Assembly (NCBI GenBank): GCA_964384415.1
Contig: CAYLMV010000003.1
Span: 6,840-70,839 of the forward strand
Direction of reading: 5' to 3'
Length of the DNA: 64,000 bases
From: an uncultured Chitinophagaceae bacterium
GTDB lineage: Bacteria > Bacteroidota > Ignavibacteria > UBA10030 > UBA8401
Shown: positions 21,164-41,701 of the stretch, piece after piece
Layout: each line of letters starts with the position of its first letter
How positions within the stretch are numbered: position 1 is the stretch's first letter
The notes under the pieces: generated by a model
The model's input: only the letters and a program-made list of their open reading frames with translations
The model's database searches: none
What the model was told of the DNA's origin: nothing
Position numbers and translations under genes: made by a program

Positions 21164-22441
21164 CTAGAAACTTCTTTCAGTCCCACCCACGTCGATTTTT
21201 CCGTTAATATGTTTCGTCGCATCTATGATGTTGCCATTCGCGTCAACAATTCCCTGATGACAACCTCCCACGCCGCCGCATGAGCTCAGGGGCAGTGGTC
21301 CCAAATGGCCCTTCGGAGGAAGTCCATGACACGATCCGCATGCTGCTTCGCCCATCCCGCCGGTCCACATTGGAGAATAGTTGTTTCCAGTCATAACAGA
21401 GTCAACAAACATTACTTGATCTTGCGGTGATGCTCCCGCTTTTGTCACCTGCCAATTTCCGTGACAATACGTATTGCTGCACTGAGTCGCGCTGGCATTG
21501 TATGACGGATTCGGAACGAACGTGCCGGCAGCGGTGACCAGGTTCGCAAGAGTGTCGCCCATAATAACTGTCGCCGGTCCGCTGTTCAAATGGCCTGCGG
21601 CAAACACTTGGGCCGGAACGTTATGGCATTCCTGGCATTTCAATACTTTGCCGAACGTCGACCGCAAGTGTCCCTGGTGAGCGCCGACTCCTCTCAAGCT
21701 TGTGGACGAGTCGCCAGTGATACTCCTCGGAGGCGCCCAGGACGCGATGTCGTTCGCAGCTCCCGTGAAGTTACCATGACACGTGTTGCACGCTTCGGGA
21801 GATTTTTGATTTCCCTTCGCATCCACGTGGCAGCCCGAAGTCATGCAGCCGATGTTGCTTCCCGTCGGGATCCCATTGTAATTTGTGCCGTGGCATGTCT
21901 TGCATCCATCCATATTCCAATTACTCGCCATGATTTCAGCCCCGTGAAATGCCGCCGACGTCGGCTGAGTCCAACCGCTGGCGTGCGGATAAGCGTTATG
22001 GCATGTGTAGCAACTTACGCCGCTCGTGCCTCCCTGGAAATTCTGAGCATGGCAGGTCTGGCATGACTGCAGGTTGAAGCCGACTGTCTTTAACGCAACA
22101 CCATGGAAATTTGCCGCCGTCGTATCGAGCCACCCTGTCTGGTGAGGATACTGCGTATGACACTTGAAACAGCTGACACCGCTCGTTCCCCCCTGATACG
22201 TCGGTGCGTGACATTGCTGGCAATTCTTTGCGTTGAAGCTCACGCTCTTTAAATACGCGCCATGGAAATCTGTGGAGAGGCTGTCATCCCAACCTGTGCC
22301 ATGCACGGAAAGCGCCGGACCGGTGGGTGTCAAACCGTCCTTGTTCTTTAAATCACTGCACCCTGTGACCGCCAAGGCGAGCAGAAGAATGGAAGCTCCG
22401 AAGTACAAATGTGTTTTCATAGTTCGCTCATTTCTTTCCAT
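21164..22441 (-). CDS. Multihaem cytochrome c lipoprotein with three internal repeats
   Basis: Lipobox LLALAVTGCSD. At least 8 CxxCH motifs plus atypical CMTSGCH, CSNTYCH and CGGVGGCH. A ~45-aa unit (FHGAxLK...NCQQCHA...GGTSGVSCFKCH) repeats three times. An alternative start lies at 22420. Confidence 0.8.
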   Translation of the reverse strand: MERNERTMKTHLYFGASILLLALAVTGCSDLKNKDGLTPTGPALSVHGTGWDDSLSTDFHGAYLKSVSFNAKNCQQCHAPTYQGGTSGVSCFKCHTQYPHQTGWLDTTAANFHGVALKTVGFNLQSCQTCHAQNFQGGTSGVSCYTCHNAYPHASGWTQPTSAAFHGAEIMASNWNMDGCKTCHGTNYNGIPTGSNIGCMTSGCHVDAKGNQKSPEACNTCHGNFTGAANDIASWAPPRSITGDSSTSLRGVGAHQGHLRSTFGKVLKCQECHNVPAQVFAAGHLNSGPATVIMGDTLANLVTAAGTFVPNPSYNASATQCSNTYCHGNWQVTKAGASPQDQVMFVDSVMTGNNYSPMWTGGMGEAACGSCHGLPPKGHLGPLPLSSCGGVGGCHQGIVDANGNIIDATKHINGKIDVGGTERSF

Positions 22442-23645
22442 GACAGTACCCGCAGAAACCTATGCCCGCAACTCCCCCCATGGTATGAGGCTTCGCATTG
22501 GGGTCGGTATGGCACGCAAAGCATGTTGCCCCGGGATCGGTCATCCAGTTGCCGTCGACATTGGCCATGAACCCGCTTGGATGCGTCCTGGGGTTAGTAC
22601 CTTTCACGCCGTCCGGATCTACGTGGCACTTCATGCACGTCGGATCGGCTCCTTCAACATCATGACAAGATTGACAACTCTCAATTTCTCTTCGTGCGAG
22701 GCGGGCATGCTCGCCGCCGCCAGACCCGACACCGATGGTCACAAATCCGGCCGCTTCGTGTGATGTAGGAATTACTCCGCCCAGGGCCGCACTGCCGTTC
22801 TGGTGGCAGTCGTTGCAGAACGCCTGTTCGTGATGGCACACCTGGCAATCGGCAGCGTGTCCCCGCGCTTCGATGCCATGGGTGAAGCGGAAATTCATGT
22901 CGTGCACTGCCTGTCCCTTGAGCGCCTGCGACTTGTCGTTCCCCATTGTGCGCGGGGAGATCATTCCGATCATCTCTTTGCTCGACAGCGCCGTGAGATT
23001 CGATCCGTCGTGGCACTGCGCGCAATAGTTCTCACTGTGGCACATCGAACACTGAGAATCCATGGCGTTCAACCTAGCAAGCGTCGAATGCCCCTTTAGC
23101 CAGTTGCCCTGGTTATGAGAGGCCGGCCGTAACGTCGCAAGGTTGGTATGGCAGGTCTCGCATTGATTGGATTCCTTCGTGTTGTTGTGGCACGTATTGC
23201 AGGTGGCCATTGCCGGCATATTGGCGGCCGTCGCATAGTCAACTTTATCGACACCGGCATGGCACGTCGCGCATTCCATCTTCCCGTCCGTCACGTGTTT
23301 CTTATGATTGAACCGAACCTCGCGGGCTTCGCGCGGGAACGGCACGGGATTCTTTTCGTCGGAATGGCAATAGCCGCACGTCTTGGCCACTTGCTCCTCG
23401 TGGCAAGTCTGGCAGACGGCATGTCCCGGAATCATCTTGTCGGAAGACGATTCGCTCGTCGCCGACTCTGCATGACACGTAGCGCACTCCACGCCCAACT
23501 CGGCAACATGCTTTTGGTGAGAAAACTTTATCACTTTATCCTGATCGACCGATTTCTGAGTGCCATCTGCCGACCAGCTCCCGCCCAGGGCAACGATGAA
23601 CGTCGCCGCAAGAAACAATCCAAACGTAAGAATTTTGATTCTCAT
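22428..23645 (-). CDS. Periplasmic multihaem cytochrome c (14 CxxCH)
   Basis: Signal peptide followed by 14 CxxCH motifs counted in the 405-aa translation. Confidence 0.85.
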   Translation of the reverse strand: MRIKILTFGLFLAATFIVALGGSWSADGTQKSVDQDKVIKFSHQKHVAELGVECATCHAESATSESSSDKMIPGHAVCQTCHEEQVAKTCGYCHSDEKNPVPFPREAREVRFNHKKHVTDGKMECATCHAGVDKVDYATAANMPAMATCNTCHNNTKESNQCETCHTNLATLRPASHNQGNWLKGHSTLARLNAMDSQCSMCHSENYCAQCHDGSNLTALSSKEMIGMISPRTMGNDKSQALKGQAVHDMNFRFTHGIEARGHAADCQVCHHEQAFCNDCHQNGSAALGGVIPTSHEAAGFVTIGVGSGGGEHARLARREIESCQSCHDVEGADPTCMKCHVDPDGVKGTNPRTHPSGFMANVDGNWMTDPGATCFACHTDPNAKPHTMGGVAGIGFCGYCHGKK

Positions 23646-23654
23646 AGAGTTTCC

Positions 23655-24938
23655 TTAAAACCAGCTGAGATGATCACTGAACCAGTAGTTTACTTTTGCG
23701 AAGACCCGCACGTCGTTTGAGTAGAGCGGATTGTGCATCCATTGCAGCTGCAAATCGGTCGACAAGAGCGGAGACGGACGGTATGTCGCTCCGATACTGC
23801 CGTTGATAACCGTATTCTTCGGAGCGTTGTCGGACAACTGGTAGCTTGCGTACCCGAACCCGAGGTTTGGTACTATTTGCCGGTTCATCATTGGATACAC
23901 TGCTTGCACGGAAACACCGTTGAGATCCCCGGCATATCCGAAATTCTTTGTGTACGAGATGTTGACAATATCGTATGTGCCGCCGACCGTCAACCGCTGA
24001 CTGTTGTCGTCGGTGTACTGAACATCCGCAAAACGCGCGAAAGTGCGGAAGAGCGGAGAGAATTCATATTCAAGTCCTCCTTCAACCTCCTGCGTACTGC
24101 TCGTGTTGAAGACCGAGAAGATCGAGTTATAGGCAACGCGCGGCTCGCGGAAAAGATAGTCGACCGTGGCGGTCAGCGAAGTCATGATGCCGGCTCGGGC
24201 TTCCGCTTGCGCGCGGGAGATTCGTTCGAAGTTGAAATCGTAATCGGACCTCCCGTAGAGATCGATTTTATTAAGGAGACTGTAGCGGGCGTCGAAGCTT
24301 GCGTATTCTTCTTCGTCGGGAGAATAGGCGATGACCACCACATAGGGATTGAACAGCGAGTCGGCGCGGACCGCCGTGAACGGCTCCGGTTTCCGCGTCC
24401 GGTTCATGAAGCTGAGTCCGACGACAGCATTCTCCGCAGGCTCGTAGGTCAGTTGTCCGCCGTAGAGAGAGTTGTCCGCAAAATCTCTTTTCAAGATGAT
24501 ATCCCGAGACTGGATGACATTGTATCCGCCGTATGCGGTCAGCCCCAGCCGTTTGTCGAAGAGCATCACCTTTGCCACACCGCCATCCATCAATCCATTG
24601 CCCACCCCCGCAAAAACGTATTGGCGGCCCACGGTAACATCCGCAACGTCGGCGATCCCTCGCGCTCCGACGGTCAATGATGAGAGACGCAGCTCCGGAT
24701 CCGTGCCGATGGTGGTACCGAAATCTTTGGAGTACTGGAAATTTGTGTTGAAGGCAAAATGCGGCTGAGCAACATTGAACTGGACGTTTTCAAAACCTCG
24801 CATGTAATTCTGGTTGTCCAGGTCGGCGCTTCGCCCCTGCCATCCATAGAACGACGTCGTGAATCGCCCCGACATGAACTGCGCCGAGGCCGTCGCTGCC
24901 ATGAGAAGAATACAGAAGAGTAGTATTGTATATTTCAT
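23655..24938 (-). CDS. Outer-membrane beta-barrel protein (porin-like)
   Basis: Signal peptide MKYTILLFCILLMAATASAQ, alternating amphipathic beta-strands rich in Y/G/N, and a C-terminal aromatic residue (...HLSWF). Confidence 0.65.
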   Translation of the reverse strand: MKYTILLFCILLMAATASAQFMSGRFTTSFYGWQGRSADLDNQNYMRGFENVQFNVAQPHFAFNTNFQYSKDFGTTIGTDPELRLSSLTVGARGIADVADVTVGRQYVFAGVGNGLMDGGVAKVMLFDKRLGLTAYGGYNVIQSRDIILKRDFADNSLYGGQLTYEPAENAVVGLSFMNRTRKPEPFTAVRADSLFNPYVVVIAYSPDEEEYASFDARYSLLNKIDLYGRSDYDFNFERISRAQAEARAGIMTSLTATVDYLFREPRVAYNSIFSVFNTSSTQEVEGGLEYEFSPLFRTFARFADVQYTDDNSQRLTVGGTYDIVNISYTKNFGYAGDLNGVSVQAVYPMMNRQIVPNLGFGYASYQLSDNAPKNTVINGSIGATYRPSPLLSTDLQLQWMHNPLYSNDVRVFAKVNYWFSDHLSWF

Positions 24939-25078
24939 AGCGACAATTTCCTTTGCTCGTGTGAGAACAATAAAGACAAGGATTGTGCCATTTGTCCCCG
25001 AAACATTTCTAAACGTTTTGCATGGTTTCTTTCAAGCATATGAAACTTCCTTCCAAGTATCAAGAACAATACTACCCC

Positions 25079-25096
25079 ATTCCATAAAATAGGAAT
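25079..25096. promoter_or_regulatory. Palindromic motif ATTCC-ataaaata-GGAAT upstream of the porin/cytochrome operon
   Basis: Read directly, ~140 bp upstream of the porin start. A near-identical TTCC-N9-GGAAT element lies at 33038-33056. Confidence 0.35.
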
Positions 25097-25230
25097 CCCG
25101 CCTCATCAGGATGATGAAGCGGGATTGGTTGCGGTCTGGAGGCTTTGCCGAGCCTCGTGGGATAGACGCCAGCATGTAGGGTGCCGGCGGGGGAAGTATC
25201 GCTCCCGTGAGGAAGCGAATACTGTCGTTG

Positions 25231-25767
25231 TTACTTAGCTGCGATGGGATGCTTGATCTTGTCCCACGCTTCTTTGTACTTAAATTCCTTGTATGTTGGA
25301 CTCTTGCTGTTGTGACATTTAACACAAAGCTTCGGATCGTCTGCCGCCAGAACCAGGCCTGCGGCTTCCGCCTTTGCCTTGTCTTTCATGACCGGGATCG
25401 ACTTATAATCGGACCCGGGACCATGGCATGTTTCGCACTGGACACCATCTTCCTGCTTCAATGCACCGCTGATCGCTTTATCAGCACCGTATCCTGTCAC
25501 ATGGCACTCGAGACATTCGGGAGATTCCGCAGCCTTCGTCTTGAGTCCCTTTCCCTTCGCTATCTCATCTGCCTTCGGAGTCTGAAGCGTCTTGAATGCA
25601 CTTGCGTGTGCCGAACCTTTCCAGATATCGAATTGCTTTCCTGCTTTTTCGGTCTTATGGCAGACCGAACACATCGTCACTCCAACATACTTGTGCTGCG
25701 CCATCGTGGGTAACGCGACGCATAGCACGAGCGTCAGAACAATTGCACTCTCCACTAGTCGTTTCAT
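25231..25767 (-). CDS. Periplasmic tetrahaem cytochrome c
   Basis: 178 aa with a signal peptide and 4 CxxCH motifs (CSVCH, CLECH, CETCH, CVKCH). Confidence 0.8.
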   Translation of the reverse strand: MKRLVESAIVLTLVLCVALPTMAQHKYVGVTMCSVCHKTEKAGKQFDIWKGSAHASAFKTLQTPKADEIAKGKGLKTKAAESPECLECHVTGYGADKAISGALKQEDGVQCETCHGPGSDYKSIPVMKDKAKAEAAGLVLAADDPKLCVKCHNSKSPTYKEFKYKEAWDKIKHPIAAK

Positions 25768-26046: not shown

Positions 26047-27525
26047 TTACTTGTTCGCATGCTGTTTTCTCTCTATCCGTCTGATCAGCAGATACAGTGA
26101 CGTTGCTAAAATGGTTATGATGATCGTCGCAACGCCTAAACCAATTCGTCTGAAGTAATACTCGTCTATGGCTGATTGACCTTCGCCTGAGACGAGCACG
26201 GCAACGGCGAGCCCCTTATGCACAACGTCGCCGAATTTCTGTTCGTTGAAAGAGTGGACCATGGTCCGCGATTGCAGCCGAGCCTGCCTCACATCACGAA
26301 GCTTGAACTTCGCCTCCGAAATTTCCATCCCCTTCTGTTCGGCTTCGTCGACAAGGTTTCGTCCTTTTAGCTCCGCATCCTTAAGGCTGTCGGCGAGCTG
26401 CCGCATGGCAAGAGCGACTTTGTAACCGAGCGAATTATCGTCCCCTTTGTGGCACTTACCACACAATGCGCCTGGAGCAACTCCGAGGAGGCTATCAGTC
26501 GCAGCGAGGATTTCATGGTTGCCGTGGCATGTTTCGCACTCAGGCAGCTTACGATCGTCGAACGCTTTCTTGTGCGGACTCGATGAGAACAGGTCCGCGT
26601 TCAATGCATGGCAGGTCCCGCATACTTTGGAAACCGACTCAACTCCCGGAGGCGCGGCTCCGTGATTTCCGTGGCAGCTGTTGCATGCGGGAGCGGAGAC
26701 ATCATTTTTCTGAAGAAGTGCAATGCCGTGTACGCTGCGGGCAAATTTGACATACTGGTCGGATGGAATTCCGTATTTCTTCATCAAATCGGAATCACTG
26801 TGGCAATGGGCGCACGTCGACGGGATGTTGGTAGGATATACTTTTGACTTCAAGTCGGCCGCCGAGCGTATATCATGACTGCCGTGGCAGCTTGCGCATT
26901 CTGCGGTATGCGCGTCACCCTTGGCATTCCGCATTCCGTGAACACTCGTCTTGTACTTATCCAGCTGGTCGACTGCAATCGAAGGGTTATAGGTCCTCAT
27001 GTATGTTGCGTTCGCATGACATTTCGTGCATGTCTTGACCACGTTGAGCGGATAGACCGGAGAGGCAGCATCTTTCACGTGAACAATCCCGTGCGCCGAG
27101 TGACAGGTGATACACTGGACAATGTGTTCTCTCCCGTTCGTTGCGAGCTTGCCGTGAACGCTCGTCTGAAGGTCTTCCCACTGGTTCGTCGGGAGCTGCG
27201 AACCGTACCGCCTCATCGCTTCCCCATCCGCATGACAGCTTGCGCACATCTTCGAAATTTCATCGCCCTTGGGAACGCCGATGAATCCTTCCTTCTTGCT
27301 CATGGCGACTTCGGCATCATCGGATTTGGAATTCCCTCCGTGACAATCTGCACACGACAATCCCTTCGCTGCATGCACATCGTGCTTGAACATTTTCGAC
27401 GGAGCATCTTCCATCGCCTCATGGCATGTCACGCACTGGTCTCCGGCGAATAGCCTCGGCTGCGATGCAATGATGATCGCCGAGATCGGAATGAGCAGAG
27501 AAAGTTGAAGTCTCATGAGGCCCAT
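26047..27525 (-). CDS. Multihaem cytochrome c (11 CxxCH) with C-terminal TM anchor; subunit of the Rieske/cyt b complex
   Basis: 11 CxxCH motifs, an N-terminal signal peptide and a C-terminal hydrophobic helix ([18 protein letters not shown]). Its start overlaps the cyt b stop. Confidence 0.8.
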
Positions 27526-28592
27526 CCGATGATGGTGAGAAGAATAATGTAGAAGACGACAAACATTCCGATGTACGTTATGAAGCGGTTCTTCTCGCCC
27601 CGCGCGCTCTTCCTGTCCCAGAACGGAACGAGCATCCAGAGGAAGCCTGCAAGTCCGAAGAGCAGGATTCCGAACACTTCGCCGTCGATGAACCCCAATT
27701 TAGCGGGGATCATTTTGAGGGATTGAAACATAAAGAGGAAGTACCACTCCGGTCGTATGCCGGCAGGAGCCGCTGCAAACGCATCAGCTTTCTTCCCCAA
27801 TTCCCAGGGGAAAAATACTGCAAGGATGGCGAGAAGATTCAGAACGATGAGCCACAGAAGCAGATCACGGAGTACGAAATTCGGAAAGAAGGGCATCGTC
27901 TTCGGCGGTACGCCAGTCTGGGTTTCGGACGATTGCGGTTCGCTCATCCCCTGTCGTTGGATGAGCAACAAATGGATTCCGAGAAGGACGGTGAAAATCC
28001 CCGGAAAGACTGCTACGTGAAATCCGAAGAACCGCGAGAGGGTTGCGCCGGTAACTTCTTCGCCGCCGCGAAGGAACATCATGATCGGTTTTCCGACCAC
28101 AGGAACAACTCCGGCGATGTCGGTGCCGACCTTCGTCGCAAAATATGCCAGCTCGTTCCACGGCAAAAGATAGCCGCTGAACCCAAATCCGAGCATCAGG
28201 AAAAACATCAGCATCCCGGTAAGCCAAGTGAGCTCGCGCGGTTTCCGGTACGACTTCTCGAAAAAAACGCTGAACATGTGAATCATCGCCGTCAGGATAA
28301 AGAGGTTGGCCGTCCAGCTGTGGATGGACCGGATCAGCCATCCAAACTGCACTTTCGACATGATGAACTGGATGCTTTCAAACGCAAACTCCTCGCTTCC
28401 TTTGTAATACATCAGCAGCATTATTCCCGTAACAACCTGGATGATGAAAAGGAAGAGCGAAACGCCGCCAAAATAATACCAAATAGAGTGGCGGTGTACC
28501 GGCACGTATTTCTTTCCCATAAACTTAACGAGGTCGTCCAGCATGACCCGTTCATTGATCCAATCGTAGAGAGCCGTTAATCTTTTCTTCAT
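27513..28592 (-). CDS. Cytochrome b (bc/b6-type, fused cyt b + subunit IV)
   Basis: 359 aa and polytopic with cyt b signatures ([25 protein letters not shown]). A 4-bp overlap with the Rieske gene stop indicates translational coupling. Confidence 0.85.
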
Positions 28593-29044
28593 GATTTTTT
28601 CGATATAAAGACATCTCCCCCTTGAACGTTGACTTTGTACTCTTCAAGCGGCCGGGGAGGCGGACCGGAAACGTTCCTGCCGTTGAAATCGTACTTCCCG
28701 TTGTGACAGGCGCACCAGATCAGCCCGTAGTCTTTGCGGTATTGTACCGTACAATCGAGGTGTGTGCATGTTGCCGAGAATGCTCTCAGCTCATCCTTCG
28801 CGGTGCGCAGAAGAATCACCGGTTTCGTTCCAAACTTGATGATCGTTCCGCTGTCCTTGGGGATGTCGGTCAGCTTGCCGGCCTTCACGCTGGAAACTTC
28901 GGCTTCTGCCTGGGTCGGCGGCTTCAGGTATGCGAGAACGGGATAAAGGATGGCGCCAATCCAGGCCAGGAGACTTCCGCCGAGGACGAACTTCAGGAAA
29001 TCTCTCTTATTCTGTTTCAGGTCAACAGGAGGATGTTCGGTCAT
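28589..29044 (-). CDS. Rieske [2Fe-2S] iron-sulfur protein
   Basis: CTHLDC...CACHNG Rieske boxes and an N-terminal TM/Tat-like anchor. Confidence 0.85.
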
Positions 29045-30642: not shown

Positions 30643-30718
30643 GTTGTTGTCAGTTGTCAGTTGTCAGTTGTTAGTTTTTGGTTGTTGGTTGTTCATTGTT
30701 GATTGTTCATTGTTGATC
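30643..30718. repeat. Tandem repeat tract: (GTTGTCA)x3-4, GGTTGTT x2 and a 14-bp direct duplication GTTCATTGTTGAT(T/C) overlapping the CbcL-like stop codon
   Basis: Read directly: gttgtcagttgtcagttgtcagttgttagtttttggttgttggttgttcattgttgattgttcattgttgatcc. Confidence 0.7.
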
Positions 30719-32881
30719 CTTCTGCGTCGACCGGTCCCGATTAATGTCTTCCATCAACTTTCGCACTTCCTCCGCCTTGATCCGCTGCAATTCCAGCGGG
30801 TGTTCGTCGTGCATTTCTTCCTCTGTGATCGTCCCTTTGAAGAAGGCAAGGTTGATCGGATACACATCCGGATTGAAAATCACAAAATAGAAGTGCCATA
30901 TAATAATAGAGAGCGTCGCGAGCCAGGCTTCATAATAATGGACGGTGCCTGCAACATCCCACCAGAGCTTGCCTATAATTCCAAGAAATCTGTTGTCAAA
31001 CCAGAGAATGAAGCCCGTCGCTCCCATCACGATCGTCCCCCACACCAGCGCCCAGTACTCGCTCTTCTCCACATAGCTGAACCGGTCGAACTGCGGTCTG
31101 ACCTTGCTCAATCCGATATTGTACTTCGCAACTGCGATGGCGTCGTGAAGGTCTTTCAATTTCGGCAGTAAGTCATGGACGAGCTGTTTTCCCCTGGGGA
31201 CAAACAGCACATAATAGATGTGGTAAAGACCCGCCGCGATCAGGACCAGGCCGGCGGCGCGATGAAGGAGGCTTCGAATGCCGAATACCGCGGGGCTGAG
31301 CGAGCGGATCGGGCCGACCCACCACGCATCCGGGAACTTCAGCATGAAGCCTGTTATCACGAGCGTCGTGAAGCTGATGATCAACGTGCCATGTTGCAGC
31401 CGTTCGCTCAACGTCATCCGGACATACAGTGAATGGCCGAGTTCTTCTTCATAGAGCGTTCCCCGGCGTACTCGCAGCTTCCTTTTGGATTTCTTTACGA
31501 AGTCCAGGGCATTGTGAATGAACATTCCGCCGATCGTGATGACGATGAGGAGGATATATCCGGATGTTACATAATAGAGCATATCGTTGTCTTTGGCTGA
31601 GACGATGATATGCACCGAGCCCTTCGTGAAATTCTCGTTCGCTCCCGGGTGACATTTTCCGCATGTCACTGCAAGGTTGGCCTTATTCACCCTCGATTTG
31701 GGATTGCTCGACGGCAGGATATCATGGATCCCGTGACAACTCGCGCAGTTGGCGACTTCCACGCTTCCGGCTTTCGTCGCAAGACCGTGATAGCTATCGT
31801 CAAAACTTTTTCCGCGCTCCGCTGCAAGGCCGAATTTTTCGTTCAGCCGCACCGAGTTGTGGCACGGCGAACAGACCTGGGCAGATACATGAAGCCTTGA
31901 AACGGGCGAGTTCGGGTCCTTGGGCGCGAGAATCTTGTGCTCTCCGTGGCAATCGGTGCACACGGGCGCGTCTTTATTGCCGGCGAAGAACGCAGAGCCG
32001 TGAATGCTTCCTCTGTATTCCGTTGCAATCGAAGCATGACATTTCGCGCATGTGTTGGGAATATTCAGCCTGTTCACCCGCGATGTCGGGTCTCCCCCCT
32101 TCTTCATCTCGTGGCTCCCGTGGCAATCGACGCAATTGGCCGCTCTTCCATTCCCGCCCTTCAGGGCAACGCCGTGCACGCTTTGTTCATACGACAGGAC
32201 GAAGCTCGCTGTGGGGGCATCGGCCGGCGTCTGTTTGTTCTTCACATGACAGGTGATGCATACCTGCTCCTGCGCGATCTTCAGCTGCGCGGAATCGGTC
32301 CCCGCTTTGACTGCGGTGATATTCTTGGAATGGCAGGCAACGCATGTCGGGGCGTTGAGGTTTCCGGCGAAAAGAGATTTTCCATGAGCCGACGTCAGGT
32401 ATTTCTCTTTCTCAGCCGTGTGGCATTGGCCGCAGCTCTGCACAACGTTTGAAGAATTGAATTTTGTGCCGGGCGTTTTCGGGGACTGGACGTCGTGTTT
32501 TCCGTGACACTCCTTGCACATCTGGCTCTCGTTCCTGCCCGCCTGCAGAAGCAGCGTACTATGGAATGGATGCTTCGGTTCTACATTCTTATGGCATGTT
32601 TCGCACTGGACGGGAGTGATATGTTCCTTGTGCGGCACATTCCCGGGATCAAAACCCGTGTGGCAGGCGACGCAGACCAGTTTCTTGTGCGTCGAATGAC
32701 TCAGAACTTCATCGTTCACGAACAATGAAACAGTCTTTCCGTTGCGCTCGGTAGACAATGTGCTGTCGGAGTGGCAGGCTAAACACTCTTCTTTCGTCTG
32801 CGATCTCAGCAGCGAGGACGAAGCAAGGAGTAGGAGAAAGAGAATCAGAGATTGGAAGAAAAGAGTTCGGGTCTTAAGCAT
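30707..32881 (-). CDS. Fusion of a multihaem cytochrome c (13 CxxCH) with a C-terminal dihaem cytochrome b-type membrane domain (CbcL-like)
   Basis: 724 aa. A signal peptide is followed by 13 CxxCH motifs. The C-terminal ~270 aa has 5 TM helices with conserved His in TM1, TM2, TM3 and TM5, an FdnI/HydC-like arrangement. Confidence 0.75.
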   Translation of the reverse strand: MLKTRTLFFQSLILFLLLLASSSLLRSQTKEECLACHSDSTLSTERNGKTVSLFVNDEVLSHSTHKKLVCVACHTGFDPGNVPHKEHITPVQCETCHKNVEPKHPFHSTLLLQAGRNESQMCKECHGKHDVQSPKTPGTKFNSSNVVQSCGQCHTAEKEKYLTSAHGKSLFAGNLNAPTCVACHSKNITAVKAGTDSAQLKIAQEQVCITCHVKNKQTPADAPTASFVLSYEQSVHGVALKGGNGRAANCVDCHGSHEMKKGGDPTSRVNRLNIPNTCAKCHASIATEYRGSIHGSAFFAGNKDAPVCTDCHGEHKILAPKDPNSPVSRLHVSAQVCSPCHNSVRLNEKFGLAAERGKSFDDSYHGLATKAGSVEVANCASCHGIHDILPSSNPKSRVNKANLAVTCGKCHPGANENFTKGSVHIIVSAKDNDMLYYVTSGYILLIVITIGGMFIHNALDFVKKSKRKLRVRRGTLYEEELGHSLYVRMTLSERLQHGTLIISFTTLVITGFMLKFPDAWWVGPIRSLSPAVFGIRSLLHRAAGLVLIAAGLYHIYYVLFVPRGKQLVHDLLPKLKDLHDAIAVAKYNIGLSKVRPQFDRFSYVEKSEYWALVWGTIVMGATGFILWFDNRFLGIIGKLWWDVAGTVHYYEAWLATLSIIIWHFYFVIFNPDVYPINLAFFKGTITEEEMHDEHPLELQRIKAEEVRKLMEDINRDRSTQKDQQ

Positions 32882-33179: not shown

Positions 33180-34106
33180 ATGGATCGCAGATCATTTCTT
33201 CTTCGGGCCGGGGGAGTTGCACTTCTTGCCGGCACTCGCACTTCGAAAGCCAGTCTCAAATGGGTGGGGGAGAAATTGTCCGAGGACAAAGCGATGGCGG
33301 GTTATGACCTTGTTGCAGTAAAGGGAGGCGAGCCCGAGGTCATGTTCCAGAATGGAATTCAGGCCATGGGGGGGATGAGAGCGTTCGTCAAAAAAGGGCA
33401 GAAAGTTGTGATCAAGCCGAACATCGGATGGGATGTGTCCCCCGAACGCGGCGGAAACACAAATCCGAAACTTGTTGCTGAAATTGTGAAGCAATGCCGC
33501 GATGCGGGAGCAAAAGAAATTGTTGTCTTTGATCACACGTGCGATGATTGGCAGCGGACGTACAAAAACAGCGGAATATCTTCCGCGGTCTCGGATGCAG
33601 GCGGGAAAATGGCTCCGGGCAATACGGAAGGATATTTCCAGGAGGTTACGATAGCGGGGGCAAAGAACCTGACGAAAGCAAAAGTCCACGAGGTCATTCT
33701 CAGCTCCGATGTCTTCATCAACATCCCCGTCCTAAAGAATCACAACTCCGCCACGCTCACGATGTCTATGAAGAACCTGATGGGCGTAGTATGGGATCGC
33801 CGCGATTGGCATGCCAACGATCTGCACCAATGCATCGCCGACTTCCCCCTTTATCGGAAGCCGGACCTGAACGTGCTGGACGCTTACTACGTCATGACAC
33901 GAAACGGGCCTCGCGGCGTTTCGCAAGCCGACGTGATAACGATGAAAACTCAACTCATCTCCACGGACCTCGTAGCGCTTGATACTGCCGGCGCAAAGCT
34001 TTTCGGCCTTGACCCTCAGACGATTCGTTACATCCAGATTGCCGCCGAGCAGAAAATAGGCCGTGCCGATCTTGATCATCTCAACATCAAACGTATCTCT
34101 CTCTGA
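33180..34106 (+). CDS. DUF362 domain protein with Tat signal peptide
   Basis: A twin-arginine motif (MDRRSFLLRAGGVALLAG) followed by DUF362-like ferredoxin-associated domain features. Confidence 0.6.
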   Translation: MDRRSFLLRAGGVALLAGTRTSKASLKWVGEKLSEDKAMAGYDLVAVKGGEPEVMFQNGIQAMGGMRAFVKKGQKVVIKPNIGWDVSPERGGNTNPKLVAEIVKQCRDAGAKEIVVFDHTCDDWQRTYKNSGISSAVSDAGGKMAPGNTEGYFQEVTIAGAKNLTKAKVHEVILSSDVFINIPVLKNHNSATLTMSMKNLMGVVWDRRDWHANDLHQCIADFPLYRKPDLNVLDAYYVMTRNGPRGVSQADVITMKTQLISTDLVALDTAGAKLFGLDPQTIRYIQIAAEQKIGRADLDHLNIKRISL

Positions 34107-34109
34107 CCT

Positions 34110-35636
34110 GTGCGTCATCTCAGAACGATAAGAGTGAGCGTCGCGTCGGTAGTCTTCATACTCGCGGCGCTCTTTTTTTTGGATTTCATCGGCGCCATCC
34201 CGCCGCGGATCATCTCCGCCCTCCTCGCCTTCCAAATGGGCCCGTCGGTTCTCTCCGTAATCGGCGCGCGCAGCATCGCGTTGTTCGGTTTGCTTTTCGT
34301 GATAGGGACGACGCTGCTCATGGGGCGTGTGTATTGTTCACACCTTTGTCCGCTGGGTACGCTTCAGGATATTTTCATTTGGACCGCAAAGAAAAAGTAT
34401 ACGCACCGCCGCTACCCTTTTAGCAAGCCCGCGTACCTCATTCACTACGCACTCACCGCCATCATCGTCGGATGCGCAATCGGAGGGAGCATGGTGCTGC
34501 TGAATCTGTTTGAACCGTTCAGCAACTTTGGAAGAATTTCTACCGATCTTGCCCGTCCCCTCGTCATCCTGCTCAATAACGCCATTGCGTCTGTATTGTC
34601 GAGGAATCAGGTGTATTTGTTCTACGTAGTTCCGCTCGACGGACTCGCTATTCCCGTCATTATTGCGTCGGCAGTCTTTCTCGGGGGCTTGTACTTGCTG
34701 AGCTTCAAATACGGACGCTTCTTCTGCAATACGATGTGTCCCGTCGGAGGGATTCTGGGCCTTTTCTCTCGTGTTTCCTTCCTCCATATCACTATCAATC
34801 ATAAAGAATGCATCGATTGCGGTCTTTGCGAGAGGGTCTGCCGCGCGCGCTGCATTGACGCCAAGGACCGGAAGATTGATTTCGCGGCCTGTGTCGGATG
34901 CTTCGATTGCATTGCTTCCTGCCCGAATGAAGGCATGACGTACAGCGTGCGCTGGAATAAGACTACCCATCCTGAACCACTGAATGCCGGGAGACGAAAA
35001 GTCATGCTCGGGGCTGGGGCCGGAATGATGCTTTTATTGAAAGCTCCGCCTCCGATCTCTGAGATGAGCGTTGGAAATAGAACTCCGGTTGTACCCCCGG
35101 GCGCAAAGAGCATCGAGCGATTCACACACCATTGCACGGCATGTCATCTCTGCATAAGCTCATGCCCATCGCACGTCCTGCAGCCATCGTTCTTCGAGTT
35201 CGGCCTCGCAGGCATCATGCAGCCGAGGATGGACTATTCCGTCAACTATTGCACGTACGATTGCACTCTCTGCGGACAAGTGTGCCCCACCGGCGCCATC
35301 GCACAGCTCTCGCAGGCCGAAAAGAAACTGGTACAAATCGGAAAAGCGCATTTCACAAAAGAAGACTGCATCGTCGAAACGAAGAAGACCGACTGCGGAG
35401 CTTGCTCGGAGCACTGTCCAACGAAAGCTGTCCACATGATTCCCTATGGGAAGCTCTTCCTCCCGGAAGTTGACAATGAGTACTGCGTCGGATGCGGCGC
35501 GTGCGAGCATGCCTGTCCGACAAAACCGCGGAAAGCCATCTCAGTGCAATCGAATGTGATCCACGCCGTGGCAAAGAAGAGAGACGACGTTAAACTCCAG
35601 ATTCCCGCAGAAACCCCGCAAGATTTCCCGTTTTAA
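34110..35636 (+). CDS. Membrane-bound polyferredoxin, NapH/MauN/RdxA family ([4Fe-4S] x4)
   Basis: 508 aa. TM helices carry CSHLCP/CNTMCP motifs. Four CxxCxxCxxxCP clusters follow (CIDCGLCERVC, CVGCFDCIASCP, CTACHLCISSCP, CTLCGQVCP, CGACSEHCP, CVGCGACEHACP). Confidence 0.7.
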   Translation: MRHLRTIRVSVASVVFILAALFFLDFIGAIPPRIISALLAFQMGPSVLSVIGARSIALFGLLFVIGTTLLMGRVYCSHLCPLGTLQDIFIWTAKKKYTHRRYPFSKPAYLIHYALTAIIVGCAIGGSMVLLNLFEPFSNFGRISTDLARPLVILLNNAIASVLSRNQVYLFYVVPLDGLAIPVIIASAVFLGGLYLLSFKYGRFFCNTMCPVGGILGLFSRVSFLHITINHKECIDCGLCERVCRARCIDAKDRKIDFAACVGCFDCIASCPNEGMTYSVRWNKTTHPEPLNAGRRKVMLGAGAGMMLLLKAPPPISEMSVGNRTPVVPPGAKSIERFTHHCTACHLCISSCPSHVLQPSFFEFGLAGIMQPRMDYSVNYCTYDCTLCGQVCPTGAIAQLSQAEKKLVQIGKAHFTKEDCIVETKKTDCGACSEHCPTKAVHMIPYGKLFLPEVDNEYCVGCGACEHACPTKPRKAISVQSNVIHAVAKKRDDVKLQIPAETPQDFPF

Positions 35637-36709: not shown

Positions 36710-37933
36710 TCAGAACTTCGTCCATGAGAGAGTCCGAATAGTTACGCTCTCCCCTTTTTCAATCCGCTCTTTATTTTCTGAAAGTATAATGAGGCAGTTT
36801 GCTGCGGCGAGCCCCCCAACCATGTGCGAGCCCTGGCCGCTCACCGGCTTGACGCTGAAATGACCATCCGGCAATCGCGTTGCGACGGCCCGGACAAACT
36901 CTACTCTTCCGGGACTCCTCCGGAATTCCGATTCCATCAGCGCAAGATAATTCAATACCGCGCCGCGCGGGAGTCCCATTATTTTTTGGAGAGCCGGCAT
37001 CACCAGCACTTCAAGAGATACAAGCGCCGAAACCGGGTTGCCAGGCAATCCAAAGACCAGTTTGTTCCCCCGAGTTCCAAAATAGTTGGGCTTGCCGGGC
37101 TTCATCGCCACTCTCCAGAAGACGGTTTCCACGCGCAAATCGTTCAGCACCTCTTTGACAAAATCAAAATCTCCTACGGAAACTCCCCCGGCAGAAATGA
37201 CAACGTCTGCTTTTTTGATTGCCCGGGCGAAAGCCTTTGAGAGATCTTCCTTCCTATCGCGGACGTGCATTACCAGCGCTGGGTCAATTCCGATTGAACG
37301 CAGGATTGAGGATATAGAGAACGAATTCGAATCCCGAATCTCCCCCCGGCGGAGGCGGCGCGACGGAGACCGGACTTCATTCCCCGTGATAACCAGCGCT
37401 ACTGAAGGCTTCCGATACACTTTCACATCTTCATACCCGAGGGTTGCCATTAATCCAATTACCGGCGGCGTTATGACCGTCCCTTTTGAAAGAACACTCT
37501 CGCCCTTATAAAACTCCTCGCCCCGCTTTCGGAGATTCGCCCCTTCCATGGCCGCCGATTTGAAGATGATCTCTTTGCCTCTCACCTTCACGAGTTCCTT
37601 CATGACCACCGCGTCTGTTCCTCTTGGAAGAGGGGCGCCCGTCATGATTTTCATCGTCTGCAGGGGCTTCAACGTGCGGGGAGCGCTGCTTCCGGCAGCG
37701 ATCGTCAATGCAACCGGGAGCCTGACCTGATTCTGTTCCGAGGCATTCCTGAGATCACGAACTCGAACCGCGTATCCGTCAACCGATGATGAGTCGAACA
37801 GCGGGATTGCTTCGCGCGCCTTGATCTCCTGAGCGAGAGCGTATCCGAGCGAATCGCCGATTGACAACTTCACAGGCATTGAGCGACGCGAGTGTTTTAA
37901 TATCTTTTCTAAGGCTTCTCCGAATTCCAACAC
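36710..37933 (-). CDS. moeA: Molybdopterin molybdotransferase
   Basis: 407 aa with the MoeA domain order and a GGVSVGDFD motif. Confidence 0.85.
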   Translation of the reverse strand: MLEFGEALEKILKHSRRSMPVKLSIGDSLGYALAQEIKAREAIPLFDSSSVDGYAVRVRDLRNASEQNQVRLPVALTIAAGSSAPRTLKPLQTMKIMTGAPLPRGTDAVVMKELVKVRGKEIIFKSAAMEGANLRKRGEEFYKGESVLSKGTVITPPVIGLMATLGYEDVKVYRKPSVALVITGNEVRSPSRRLRRGEIRDSNSFSISSILRSIGIDPALVMHVRDRKEDLSKAFARAIKKADVVISAGGVSVGDFDFVKEVLNDLRVETVFWRVAMKPGKPNYFGTRGNKLVFGLPGNPVSALVSLEVLVMPALQKIMGLPRGAVLNYLALMESEFRRSPGRVEFVRAVATRLPDGHFSVKPVSGQGSHMVGGLAAANCLIILSENKERIEKGESVTIRTLSWTKF

Positions 37934-38096
37934 GTGTTTTTGCCGTCAATATTGTATTTGGGAATTATGGATGATAGTACATTCCGGCGAAAAAGACAAG
38001 TCTGCCATTCTGAATCGAGCCCCTCATCCGCCACTTGATCACCTCTTGAACGCGGCCAATCGATGGTCGATCTCGCCAGGATGAGTGAATGGTGCT

Positions 38097-38534
38097 TCAA
38101 CAATTGACCCCTTTGCCGGAGGACTCTTCCACATGGTCATTTATTGCCAGCCAGAAACATCCCGCTGAGAAGATCATATCGCGAATAATGGCTGCGGCGC
38201 CAACCTTCTCCGGAAACCACGTTCCAAAACATCCGCAATTCGCATTCTGATTGCGCAGAGCAAGAATAAGCAAGGCAATGGTGAACGTGCATGTCATCAT
38301 GCCTAAAAAAAACGCCATGAGGCTCGTCCGGAATTTGACGATCAGTGAAAGGCCGAAGAAAACCTCAGCTCCAATAATCCCAATCGCGGCTGGCACGAGA
38401 AAAGGAGCCGGCACCATCTCGAATTTGTTGAGGTCGTCAAGAAACACATAGAACTCCAGGGCCTTGAGGCAACCAGCTGCCAGGTAAGCCGCCCCCAGAA
38501 ACAAACGCAATGTATCGGCAAAGAAGGATTTCAT
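38097..38534 (-). CDS. MauE/DoxX-family redox-associated membrane protein
   Basis: Four TM helices and a conserved NCGCFG motif. The start is set at MKSFFADTL, the internal Met of a longer ORF. Confidence 0.55.
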   Translation of the reverse strand: MKSFFADTLRLFLGAAYLAAGCLKALEFYVFLDDLNKFEMVPAPFLVPAAIGIIGAEVFFGLSLIVKFRTSLMAFFLGMMTCTFTIALLILALRNQNANCGCFGTWFPEKVGAAAIIRDMIFSAGCFWLAINDHVEESSGKGVNC

Positions 38535-38590
38535 AGATCGAGCTGAATTCTCCTCCCAATTCCTTAACAAGTTGATTTGCTCCTGGAGGC

Positions 38591-39298
38591 TTAACCATAA
38601 AGAGAAAGCTTGAGGAACTGAGTGATTGACTCTTGAATAGCCGACACGAATATCCAATCAAAGAAAGCCACGAGTACCCTGGCGGAGAATCTGAGGGAAG
38701 AAAACGTGCCTGCCCCTATGGCCACCATGCCTATAAACCACGCCGCAAAGATATCTGCTTTTTCTAGAATCTGGAATACCGGCAAGTGAGCCAATGCAAG
38801 CAGATTATTTAAGTTCAGAAAAGTCACAACCGAAAAATTTGTCCCTCTTACCATGCAGACAATGCAACCGAGGACCACCGCCGAGACACCCTCCAACAAG
38901 ACAATGAAGTAAGAATAGACAACCACGGAGAGACATTGTCTATAGAGAAGCTCCGAGCGGCTTCCCGAAAGGACGGCGACATAATAAAGAAAAAGTGCAC
39001 CAGCGCCGAATCTTACACTCAACAGGGCTGCCACGAGTACAATGCTCCCCATCGTAATTTCCGCGGTAAGAGTTGAATGCTTCATCCAGAGGCAGAATAG
39101 GACAACGGTTGCCTGGGCCATCGAAACGCACGTCGCTGCCCGGAGAAAAACAGGCTGCCTCAATCGCCGTTCGAAGAACTTTCGAGGCCGAAGAATTAGC
39201 TCACAGACCTCCTGCAAAATCATCGGGGTCCCTCCACAATCCAGGAAAATCAGAGGTACAATAAGAATGTGAATCTCCATTGATCCAAGAGAATGCAC
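38591..39298 (-). CDS. Hypothetical polytopic membrane protein
   Basis: 235-aa ORF with ~6 hydrophobic helices, co-oriented within the peptide locus. The start is uncertain. Confidence 0.4.
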   Translation of the reverse strand: MHSLGSMEIHILIVPLIFLDCGGTPMILQEVCELILRPRKFFERRLRQPVFLRAATCVSMAQATVVLFCLWMKHSTLTAEITMGSIVLVAALLSVRFGAGALFLYYVAVLSGSRSELLYRQCLSVVVYSYFIVLLEGVSAVVLGCIVCMVRGTNFSVVTFLNLNNLLALAHLPVFQILEKADIFAAWFIGMVAIGAGTFSSLRFSARVLVAFFDWIFVSAIQESITQFLKLSLYG

Positions 39299-39343
39299 AG
39301 CCTCCCAACTTCCTTGATGCTCACCAAATGCATCGCCCTCAGT

Positions 39344-39877
39344 TCACTCCTCGGCGCTCTTTGGCATGAAGGTGAAGCTTAGCATGGAGATGGAACTCAT
39401 CTCCAACATCTGAACTGAGGTAGTCTTAAATGACCATATGCTCGTTCTTCCCATAAAAGGAATCGACTTCTCTTTCTCTGCTTTCCCGAGCCGGTCTGAG
39501 TACTTTTGGCGAAATCGTTCGATCTTATCATCGTCTTTCTGAAGTTGTTTGGTCACTGTGTCAATCGACATAGTGGTAACGATAACTGACTTGAGCAAAC
39601 TGTCCGCCTTGGCAAATTGAAGAGCAACAAGTACTCTTTGAGCATACATTGTATCGAGATAGTACTCGGTGAAATTGCCGCCTCCTCCAGATGGAAACGC
39701 ATGACCATCTGCATTCATCTGCTTAAGCTCTTTTGTGTGGAGTTTGGCACTTACGTCAACAAACTTCATTCCCCAGGATAGTTGCTCAAATGAAAAGAGC
39801 GGATCCTTTAACAATTGTGCGCTCGCCGGACTAAGAATAAGGAACAAGATCGACAAGATCTTCGCGAAAGGCTTCAT
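39344..39877 (-). CDS. Hypothetical secreted protein
   Basis: 177 aa from MKPFAKILSILFLILSPASAQ (a signal peptide). No catalytic motif. Confidence 0.45.
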   Translation of the reverse strand: MKPFAKILSILFLILSPASAQLLKDPLFSFEQLSWGMKFVDVSAKLHTKELKQMNADGHAFPSGGGGNFTEYYLDTMYAQRVLVALQFAKADSLLKSVIVTTMSIDTVTKQLQKDDDKIERFRQKYSDRLGKAEKEKSIPFMGRTSIWSFKTTSVQMLEMSSISMLSFTFMPKSAEE

Positions 39878-39988
39878 CGGGGTGTTCTCCGTTTGATGAA
39901 AGATTCTGTTTTCTTTTCTCACGCGCACTTTCTAAAACAGGAACATCGACCAGATTTTTCCAGGGGAGTGTATTATTATCCACTAAAC

Positions 39989-40021
39989 ATCCTCTGGGTC
40001 AGTTGACCCAACCCAGAGGAT
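39989..40021 (-). terminator. Strong hairpin (11-bp perfect stem) immediately downstream of the precursor-peptide gene; candidate attenuator/terminator
   Basis: ATCCTCTGGGT-cagttgaccca-ACCCAGAGGAT read directly. It lies ~20 nt after the peptide stop, with no clear U-run. Confidence 0.5.
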
Positions 40022-40041
40022 ATTTGGCAAGTATTCCAGAA

Positions 40042-40302
40042 CTAAAGGATCTGGCCGATGACGCATCCGACATAGATAATTGCATAGGTGACTGAACAGA
40101 CTGTCGTCCCCGCTCCGGTCAACAGACAAAAGAATTGTGCCAAGGATGCAGCCGCTCCGCAATCGACAGCTACCCTCCCGCCCGTGATCAGCCGCATCTC
40201 ATTTTGCGTGAGAGGCGATGAAGCGGTCGAGACGGGAAGGAGCGGTAGGATGAGAGTGATCAGGAGCATGCACACCAGCAGCTGTTTCAGGATCTTTTTC
40301 AT
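40042..40302 (-). CDS. Candidate RiPP/bacteriocin-like precursor peptide with double-glycine leader and 4-Cys hydrophobic core
   Basis: MKKILKQLLVCMLLITLILPLLPVSTASSPLTQNEMRLITGG|RVAVDCGAAASLAQFFCLLTGAGTTVCSVTYAIIYVGCVIGQIL. LTQNEMRLITGG fits the LSxxELxxIxGG leader consensus. A C39 peptidase gene lies directly upstream. Confidence 0.6.
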   Translation of the reverse strand: MKKILKQLLVCMLLITLILPLLPVSTASSPLTQNEMRLITGGRVAVDCGAAASLAQFFCLLTGAGTTVCSVTYAIIYVGCVIGQIL

Positions 40303-40450
40303 ATTGCCCCCATTAATTGAATGTGTGATGGTTGATTTTTTCCTGCTCACCGCGGGCTGTTTGCTGCGATCGGGATCGGGAGAGGTGCCTCGACGCCCGA
40401 GTCGAAGAACCATTCCTTCACCCAAACCCATCAAACCGGCGAGCAAGTTG

Positions 40451-40957
40451 TTATTTCTTGCAGAAAACCAGCGCCTCGCCATGCCAAATCCTGGCGAGAC
40501 TCTTTTCCGATAGCTTCAGCCGCCCAATCGCCGGATCGCGCAGGTAGACTTCCCCTTCGTGAACGCTGTCCGCAACGGCAAAATGATCGTTGTGAACGAA
40601 GAGGATCGCCGGGAATTGGTTTCTTCTGAATTCTTCCATAGTCAGCTTCAAGCCCTTCGCACTCAACCCGTTCCGTTCCGCATGATGAAGCAACTCCAGC
40701 ATCGTCGTGCCGTTCCCCGTCATCTCGATCGAACGTTCGATCTCCCTCTGGCCAGCTTCAATTCCGAAGGCATCATACACCATCGCCAGGGAAGCCGGCC
40801 CGCAGTTGTTTTCTCTGGATTGGAATCGAACGCCGTCACTTCCCAGATATTCTCCCCCATATTCCCAGGCCAGATATCTATGAAGACAAGAAGGGTAAAC
40901 TAGAAACACGATGATAAGAGAGAGAAGACCGATGCCCCATGACAATTTCATTTCCAT
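40451..40957 (-). CDS. Standalone peptidase C39 (bacteriocin-processing) domain protein with N-terminal TM anchor
   Basis: 168 aa. The Q...NNCGPASLAMV motif supplies the catalytic Cys, and the NDHFAVAD His and DP Asp motifs are present. No fused ABC transporter domain. Confidence 0.7.
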   Translation of the reverse strand: MEMKLSWGIGLLSLIIVFLVYPSCLHRYLAWEYGGEYLGSDGVRFQSRENNCGPASLAMVYDAFGIEAGQREIERSIEMTGNGTTMLELLHHAERNGLSAKGLKLTMEEFRRNQFPAILFVHNDHFAVADSVHEGEVYLRDPAIGRLKLSEKSLARIWHGEALVFCKK

Positions 40958-40998
40958 TCCCCCTTAACTATCTAGAGGCCACCCAAGGCTAAAGTGCT

Positions 40999-41529: not shown

Positions 41530-41545
41530 TGGGCTCAGTTATGAT

Positions 41546-41567
41546 AGTCAAACGCGTCACGTTGACT
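41546..41567. promoter_or_regulatory. Inverted repeat AGTCAA-N10-TTGACT in the promoter region of the tlpA-C39-peptide operon
   Basis: Read directly, ~20 bp upstream of the TlpA-like start codon. Confidence 0.3.
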
Positions 41568-41701
41568 CCCCTTATCACACTGGCATGTTCAGATTGGATA
41601 GTTTCTACACTCAAAGATAGCGGAAGAGCACGGAGTTGTCAAGAAGATTCTAAAAAAATGTGAATTGCGGAGAAGCACTAAAAAATTTCCGGAACTTTTG
41701 A

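Follow-up and report, generated by a model that had tools for sequence, protein, structure and literature searches.

In a metal-respiring cell the amount of energy conserved is set by the route through which electrons exit the quinone pool, and genetic studies of such routes have so far been confined to ImcH, CbcL and CbcBA of Geobacter. CbcL was described in Geobacter sulfurreducens (Zacharoff et al. 2016); GSU0274 is 619 amino acids (aa) long, with CxxCH haem-binding motifs at residues 34, 57, 82, 105, 129, 158, 186, 229 and 257, and transmembrane (TM) helices that start at residues 285, 351, 399, 477, 511 and 589 (PMC6295460, Table S2). The haems of its periplasmic domain are all bis-histidine (bis-His) coordinated, with an apparent midpoint potential of -194 mV, and the domain reduces PpcA (Antunes et al. 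2022, PMC9129911). The CbcL/MtrH/MtoC family was reported to contain 138 proteins from 15 phyla, including two from the Ignavibacteriae and five from the Bacteroidetes; its members have 3-23 haems, share 28.6-100% identity, and possess six TM helices in 133 of the 138 cases (Zhong & Shi 2018, PMC6295460). The signature of ImcH is three N-terminal TM helices, a NapC/NirT-like region, and a CX3CH motif followed by six CX2CH motifs (Levar 2014; Zhong & Shi 2018, PMC6295460). Here we describe a gene coding for a 13-haem cytochrome c fused to a putative dihaem cytochrome b, together with an adjacent ImcH-like gene, in a window of 64,000 nucleotides from an uncultured Chitinophagaceae bacterium (Ignavibacteria in the GTDB lineage; contig CAYLMV010000003.1, positions 6,840 to 70,839). 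On the basis of its sequence the protein belongs to a large, diverged 5-TM subclade of the CbcL/MtrH/MtoC family, of which we found no description in the accessible literature.

The fusion gene is one intact open reading frame (ORF) on the minus strand with an ATG start, and its exact 724-aa product is present in NCBI (P0001). An earlier sequence-only reading, which did not state the strand, had proposed a single 724-aa polypeptide with a signal peptide, 13 CxxCH motifs and a C-terminal 5-TM domain, and each of these features is borne out. A basic n-region at the N-terminus is followed by a hydrophobic stretch, and residues 1-27 look like a signal peptide, with a cleavage site that was placed without a dedicated predictor. 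The motif CxxCH occurs exactly 13 times (at residues 33, 70, 93, 122, 150, 180, 208, 250, 278, 308, 337, 379 and 407), and a motif scan of the 724-aa protein found no CxxxCH or CxxCK variants; a rough, uncomputed estimate from the rarity of Cys and His puts the chance expectation of CxxCH in 724 aa at far less than one. Five hydrophobic helices follow the haem domain (~435-457, 498-518, 541-562, 610-629 and 651-671, from hydropathy and AlphaFold2 helices). The last four correspond to an FdnI/HydC-type cytochrome b (TM1 to TM4), and the first (TM0) is predicted to cross from the periplasm to the cytoplasm, where it is followed by a Lys/Arg-rich loop. Because loops rich in Lys and Arg follow both TM0 and TM2, the sequence fits an N-out, C-in topology.

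The haem domain is strongly conserved. In an alignment of 54 full-length homologues haem motifs 2-13 do not vary, motif 1 (C33/C36/H37) shows conservation of 90% or more, and a further 13 periplasmic His residues are also invariant (H65, 84, 104, 107, 129, 166, 236, 257, 294, 315, 365, 386 and 424). These additional His residues suffice for bis-His ligation at every haem, and the 13 c haems are probably all coordinated in this way. Several multihaem Pfam families match the N-terminal part of the protein. We also note that residues 30-186 match PDB chain 28pb_A, a 278-aa 'Cytochrome c' (E 1.2e-4), with similar motif spacing, and among structural templates this chain may be the nearest to the haem modules of the N-terminal part.

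The membrane domain is recognised by PF01292 (Ni_hydr_CYTB) at residues 488-671 (E 4.7e-13; 49.7 bits against a cutoff of 30.1), and a profile built from 22 diverse relatives matches E. coli FdnI (1kqf_C, residues 4-215 of 217) with an E value of 1.2e-15. The FdnI/HydC pattern places a single His in each of TM1 and TM2 and a pair, spaced by about 14 residues, in TM4, serving two haems. In the profile alignment H497 (TM1), H540 (TM2), and H648 and H663 (TM4, 15 residues apart) fall on FdnI H18, H57, H155 and H169 respectively, and the C-terminal tail, including an HP motif, aligns with the cytoplasmic tail of FdnI. In FdnI, H18 and H169 reportedly ligate the haem on the cytoplasmic side, and H57 and H155 that on the periplasmic side; by this correspondence H497/H663 would be the ligands of the cytoplasmic-side haem and H540/H648 those of the periplasmic-side haem. 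In a set of 151 b-domain relatives, drawn from the representatives of 50%-identity clusters, the four positions are 96-100% conserved (H648 and H663 in 151/151, H540 in 143/144 and H497 in 136/141), so that the His residues previously said to be positioned as in FdnI/HydC are both aligned and retained. A nearly invariant motif, RFSYxEKxEYW (residues 600-610, with K606 present in 149 of the 151 relatives), aligns by profile with FdnI residues 108-118, a loop said to line the 2-heptyl-4-hydroxyquinoline N-oxide (HQNO)/menaquinone pocket at the inner haem bC. An AlphaFold2 model has a mean predicted local distance difference test (pLDDT) score of 73.6, lower in the membrane part, and a Foldseek search of the PDB with this model gives 1kqf_C as the only significant match (template-modelling score 0.71 normalised to FdnI, probability 1.00). 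Scores against the NCBIfam models for FdnI (37.6 against a cutoff of 115.9) and for hydrogenase cytochrome b (24.6 against 121.5) are far below threshold, and the protein is therefore not an orthologue of either.

The relationship to CbcL was examined using P0447, a 621-aa Desulfuromonadales protein that stands in for GSU0274 and is taken as its orthologue by fingerprint. It was reached from published CbcL alignment fragments through Geobacteraceae/Desulfuromonas matches and a cluster look-up, and the spacings of its nine CxxCH motifs (23, 25, 23, 24, 29, 28, 43 and 28) are identical to those of GSU0274. BLASTP aligns residues 180-708 of the fusion protein with residues 38-580 of P0447 (30% identity over 562 columns, E 2e-69), a level of identity that falls inside the published family range. 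Haems 4-9 of CbcL align one-to-one with haems 8-13 here, and the junction between the last haem and TM0, TM1 to TM4, and the segment following TM4 are collinear. Profile-profile comparison (hhalign) of the b domain with the CbcL clade gives a probability of 100% (E 5.9e-48, 27% identity), with H497, H540, H648 and H663 aligned to His residues that are invariant in that clade. The description as a CbcL-like fusion thus agrees with both comparisons, and the collinear alignment and profile-profile match together indicate that both fusions derive from a common fused ancestor. The protein has the multihaem CX2CH domain, the FdnI/HydC-type b domain, the full-length similarity and the TM His residues of the published family, and differs from it in having five TM helices and not six. 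In function, CbcL is required to reduce extracellular acceptors of low potential, and MtrH and MtoC are linked to Mtr/Mto conduits; for the protein described here, what bears on such a role is the gene context set out below. As a separate observation, the proteins listed by a homologue search with the CbcL-clade fragment P0311 were all of 394 aa or fewer, though 621-aa members exist in the same clusters.

A word-based homologue search returned more than 7,400 database matches, which may include multihaem proteins with no b domain. The best 120 of these, drawn from NCBI, ENA, JGI and Logan assemblies and belonging to Ignavibacteria/Bacteroidota-type metagenome-assembled genomes, are all 671-765 aa long and 58-86% identical to the query, and all carry both haem and PF01292 domains. 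The junction between the last haem, TM0 and TM1 is conserved in the 54 aligned full-length homologues and in the CbcL clade. Because the architecture recurs in more than 100 homologues whose assemblies are independent and the junction is conserved, the fusion is not an artefact, and a frameshift joining two genes, which the sequence-only reading had raised as a possible flaw, is excluded. An exhaustive search with the b domain identified 2,183 representatives at E <=1e-3. The 150 nearest of these have 0-19 haems, with 11 the commonest number; those fused proteins that were checked are all 5-TM, and none of the 150 has the CbcL fingerprint. Some b-domain relatives have other arrangements: P0244 and P0245 show the reversed order, with the cytochrome b N-terminal and 8-16 CxxCH motifs C-terminal, and P0209 and P0263 have additional TM helices after the b domain.

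Coordinates, in the window, of the fusion gene, its domains and the genes that follow it
Feature	Window position	Strand	Basis
c/b fusion gene (complete)	30707..32881	-	ORF and translation; stop codon 30707-30709
Putative Sec-type signal peptide, residues 1-27 (MLKTRTLFFQSLILFLLLLASSSLLRS)	32801..32881	-	Hydropathy and AlphaFold2 helix 2-22
Periplasmic 13-CxxCH domain, residues 28-430	31592..32800	-	Motif count, Pfam, alignment
Linker helix TM0, residues 433-457, ending in conserved H456	31511..31585	-	Hydropathy, AlphaFold2, alignments
FdnI/HydC-type four-helix dihaem cytochrome b (TM1-TM4), residues 488-671	30869..31420	-	PF01292, profile, Foldseek
Cytoplasmic C-terminal tail, residues 672-724 (NPDVYP..GTITEEEM.DEHP..)	30710..30868	-	Homologous to FdnI C-terminal tail; without a sixth TM helix
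ImcH-like gene, 494 aa	29081..30565	-	TM/haem fingerprint, NapC/NirT Pfam; 141 bp downstream of the fusion gene
Rieske protein	28589-29044	-	Domain searches
Cytochrome b6-like protein, 359 aa	27513-28592	-	Top-scoring NCBIfam models are cytochrome b6 and ExtP, each under its cutoff
11-haem cytochrome c with C-terminal TM anchor	26047-27525	-	Motif and TM count
Tetrahaem c554-like protein	25231-25767	-	Domains, motifs
Porin candidate, 427 aa, signal peptide, ends ...HLSWF	23655-24938	-	Without Pfam or NCBIfam match; position
14-haem cytochrome	22428-23645	-	Motif count
Cytochrome with 8 CxxCH and 2 CxxxxCH	21164-22441	-	Motif count

The next gene downstream had been described as ImcH-like, and it matches the ImcH fingerprint almost position for position. 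The ORF has three N-terminal TM helices (~20-38, 47-65 and 95-113), a CX3CH motif at 127 and CX2CH motifs at 152, 201, 310, 427, 447 and 487, and scores 37.2 bits with PF03264 (NapC/NirT; cutoff 24.1); all seven haem motifs lie within 1-2 residues of those in PIP78050.1, a published Ignavibacteria ImcH homologue. A terminator scan found none on the minus strand between the two genes, and around the fusion gene a scan for sigma-70 promoters and terminators gave counts no higher than expected from shuffling. A tandem heptamer repeat lies in the 141-bp spacer that separates the two genes (window 30646-30717); it extends into the last codons of the fusion gene and consists of GTTGTCA repeated 4.4 times followed by GTTGTTG repeated seven times, with the 14-mer TTGTTGATTGTTCA present in 2.6 copies.

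Beyond the ImcH-like gene, the Rieske, cytochrome b6-like and 11-haem cytochrome genes (26047..29044, minus strand) appear to form a bc-type quinol:cytochrome c module with a multihaem protein in place of the monohaem cytochrome c. The four genes after these (21164..25767, minus strand) constitute a candidate outer-membrane porin-cytochrome conduit in which, from its position and synteny, the 427-aa protein is likely to be the porin; a CcmF-type haem lyase gene is also present downstream on the same strand. The order of the c/b fusion, ImcH-like, c554-like and porin candidate genes is kept at five related loci, with 58-82% identity between their fusion proteins and the one described here. At four of these loci (L003/L004, L008, L009 and L010) this order also takes in, downstream of the ImcH-like gene, the module of Rieske protein, cytochrome b and ~490-aa cytochrome, and at L001/L002 a sensor kinase takes the place of the Rieske module. 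The same four loci have a second c/b unit between the fusion and ImcH-like genes, either split into two proteins (677-694 and 288-305 aa) or fused (929 aa). This second pairing of a multihaem c with PF01292 (L003, 11396-14324; L008, 11198-14075; L010, 11118-13907) is absent from the window, and across the relatives the second units constitute a natural series of split and fused forms. A study of Melioribacter respiration (Gavrilov et al. 2017) contains nothing on this cluster.

Adjacent to the fusion gene on its upstream side, and divergently transcribed (window 33180-35636, plus strand), are genes for a DUF362 protein and a 508-aa membrane polyferredoxin with several 4Fe-4S motifs; the pair is missing from this position in the closest related locus, L001, and may therefore be an insertion. 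Further upstream (window 36710-42610, minus strand) are molybdopterin biosynthesis genes in the same order as in L001, encoding MoeA and a 302-aa ORF assigned as MoaC/MoCF by synteny only, with no molybdoenzyme catalytic gene seen near them. The same segment contains a domain-checked MauE/DoxX-like protein, also in the L001 order, and ORFs matching by position the Yip1-like, peptidase C39 and redoxin genes of L001.

We consider it likely that the fusion protein is an inner-membrane menaquinol:cytochrome c oxidoreductase of the CbcL/MtrH/MtoC kind, representing the diverged 5-TM subclade. The signal peptide would export the 13-haem c domain to the periplasm and TM0 would return the chain to the cytoplasm, with the FdnI-type bundle binding two b haems stacked across the membrane. 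The homology with FdnI would put the quinone site close to the inner b haem, on the cytoplasmic (N) side of the membrane, where it could be formed by the RFSYxEKxEYW loop, H663 and probably H554. Menaquinol would be oxidised at the N side with release of protons to the cytoplasm, and the electrons would cross the membrane by way of the two b haems, travel along the 13-haem wire, and then pass to the periplasmic and porin-associated cytochromes encoded downstream. As electron transfer would run from the N side to the periplasmic (P) side, the membrane potential would assist the reaction, and such a potential-assisted route would suit low-potential acceptors but would cost proton-motive force. 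The neighbouring ImcH-like protein could provide an alternative P-side, electroneutral quinol oxidase. N-side menaquinol oxidation has been argued for CbcL and contrasted with P-side electroneutral ImcH (Pimenta et al. 2023, 10.1101/2023.05.03.539133). The idea that the two proteins here serve redox-potential-specific exit routes, as the sequence-only reading had suggested, draws on analogy with Geobacter genetics.

Several points weigh against this assignment. The sixth TM helix of nearly all published CbcL/MtrH/MtoC members is absent, the comparison with CbcL used the fingerprint-identified orthologue P0447 and not the GSU0274 sequence, AlphaFold2 confidence in the membrane domain is moderate (block-mean pLDDT ~44-82), and it is by inference that the protein is given its haem content, its quinone specificity, the side of its quinone site and its direction of electron flow. 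The family includes MtoC of Fe(II) oxidisers, and quinone reduction (electron uptake) is equally compatible with the structure. The same protein working in reverse would be an MtoC-like or FdnI-like quinone reductase, with electrons from a periplasmic or extracellular source (for example Fe(II), a cathode or a dehydrogenase of the periplasm) passing through the 13-haem wire to menaquinone at the cytoplasmic side, and would generate proton-motive force as an arm of a redox loop. This is the direction in which FdnI, the closest homologue of solved structure, operates, and the oxidases and reductases of the family are not distinguished by any sequence feature (PMC6295460). However, the gene is linked both to a porin-cytochrome-like set and to a member of the ImcH family, which has so far been found only in Fe(III) reducers (PMC6295460), and reports on Ignavibacteria describe Fe(III)/As(V) reduction and membership of anode biofilms; reversibility is compatible with all of these, and we regard the quinone-reductase reading as unlikely.

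Two further interpretations seem less probable still. The protein could act as a quinol dehydrogenase for a soluble periplasmic reductase of nitrite, arsenate, selenite/tellurite or sulfur compounds, with no part in extracellular electron transfer. Its haem modules have weak NCBIfam similarity to those of the NrfB and DmsE types, the neighbouring cytochrome b resembles ExtP of the selenite/tellurite operon (213 bits, below the cutoff of 290), and molybdopterin biosynthesis genes lie a few kb upstream. Against this, no NrfA, Arr, Psr or Mo-enzyme gene is present among the ORFs and domains examined (window ~18.9-42.6 kb), and the downstream multihaem cytochromes, with a secreted, Pfam-less protein that has an outer-membrane-protein-like C-terminal Phe, have a porin-cytochrome layout; we consider this role improbable. 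It can also be imagined that the membrane domain binds three b haems, the third held by H456 at the cytoplasmic end of TM0 and by H554, which lies 14 residues after H540 in TM2 and generates an H-x13-H arrangement like that in helix B of cytochrome b6/bc1. Both residues are invariant in the close family (the 54-sequence alignment), H456 is likewise invariant in the CbcL clade, and TM2 has a weak profile match to cytochrome b6 helix B (E 0.011-0.4). Among the 151 relatives, however, 10 have Gln or Asn in place of H554 and about 20% have Tyr, Leu, Phe or Trp in place of H456, these substitutions occur independently of each other, and H554 is retained in stand-alone b subunits that have no TM0. 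Such replacements and the lack of co-variation make a third haem scarcely credible, and a hydrogen-bonding or quinone-site role for H554 and H456 is more likely than haem ligation.

The fusion protein is a diverged member of a known family and not a new kind of system, and its presence in a metal-respiring Ignavibacteria-like bacterium is largely expected. The fusion type, the variable haem number, the occurrence in Ignavibacteriae and the co-occurrence with ImcH in one genome have all been published. None of the 138 homologues in the 2018 survey (Table S2) is a 13-haem/5-TM protein of ~724 aa, and what appears modestly new is a very populous 5-TM subclade with an FdnI-like C-terminal topology and conserved residues of its own. 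Also of modest novelty is that CbcL-type, ImcH-type and Rieske/cytochrome b modules are tightly linked to a putative outer-membrane conduit, and that this linkage is conserved. The diverged and very abundant CbcL-type enzyme is carried by Ignavibacteria-type bacteria, common inhabitants of sediments, aquifers and anode biofilms; the CbcL family gains a 5-TM subclade, and proteins annotated as 'cytochrome b/b6 domain-containing protein' can be given a clear label. We suggest, tentatively, that this locus and its relatives may encode a complete, co-oriented set of energetically distinct quinol exits that feed one outer-membrane conduit. The set would possibly comprise an N-side, potential-driven CbcL-type enzyme (5-TM, with H554 and K606 as conserved quinone-site residues of its own), an ImcH-type enzyme that is electroneutral and works at the P side, and a Q-cycle-type Rieske/cytochrome b module. 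If this is true and their use depends on acceptor potential, Ignavibacteria would have a compact, co-localised 'gearbox', and the redox-potential-routing hypothesis from Geobacter would become testable outside the Desulfuromonadia, for which the locus offers a compact setting.

With FdnI, the gamma subunit (cytochrome b556) of formate dehydrogenase-N from E. coli (PDB 1KQF chain C), the membrane domain shares a four-helix bundle with four ligand His residues, a cytoplasmic loop at the start of TM3, and a cytoplasmic C-terminal tail with an HP motif. Cytochromes b of the FdnI/HydC type serve as separate membrane-anchor subunits of formate dehydrogenases or [NiFe] hydrogenases, and FdnI is a 217-aa subunit fed by an Fe-S subunit, whereas the b domain here is joined through an extra helix to a 13-haem cytochrome c, and no formate dehydrogenase or hydrogenase catalytic genes (fdh, hyd) are seen among the ORFs and domains of the same ~18.9-42.6 kb interval. 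CbcBA and the other Geobacter Cbc complexes likewise combine a multihaem cytochrome c with a PF01292-type cytochrome b, but in CbcBA these are separate polypeptides, the c subunit having a C-terminal anchor of its own, and here they are one chain. The ImcH-like protein resembles ImcH (GSU3259) in its three TM helices, its NapC/NirT homology, its CX3CH and six CX2CH motifs, and its length (494 aa here and 507 aa in GSU3259); this likeness rests on motif and TM fingerprints, with motifs at 132, 156, 205, 311, 428, 448 and 486 in GSU3259 and at 127/128, 152, 201, 310, 427, 447 and 487 here. Geobacter imcH is monocistronic and is not known to be linked to cbcL, whereas the gene described here is flanked by the CbcL-type gene and the Rieske/cytochrome b operon.

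CbcL itself has the same order of parts (a signal peptide, a multihaem c domain, a linker TM helix and an FdnI/HydC-type dihaem b), with its last six haem modules collinear with those here, and shares the TM0, TM1 and TM2 His residues, both His residues of TM4, and the segment following TM4 (FP..F.G....EE..EE). The greater number of haems noted earlier is correct (13 and nine, with seven before the shared six-haem core here and three in CbcL) but not unusual in a family that spans 3-23. The CbcL clade carries the motif ERWTYWEKFDF. H554 is specific to the 5-TM group, the CbcL clade having a non-invariant His one helical turn later. The sixth helix of the CbcL clade (YDFFIKGFGF...LLLMVYAY) is replaced by a hydrophilic tail, and the C-terminus is therefore cytoplasmic, as in FdnI.

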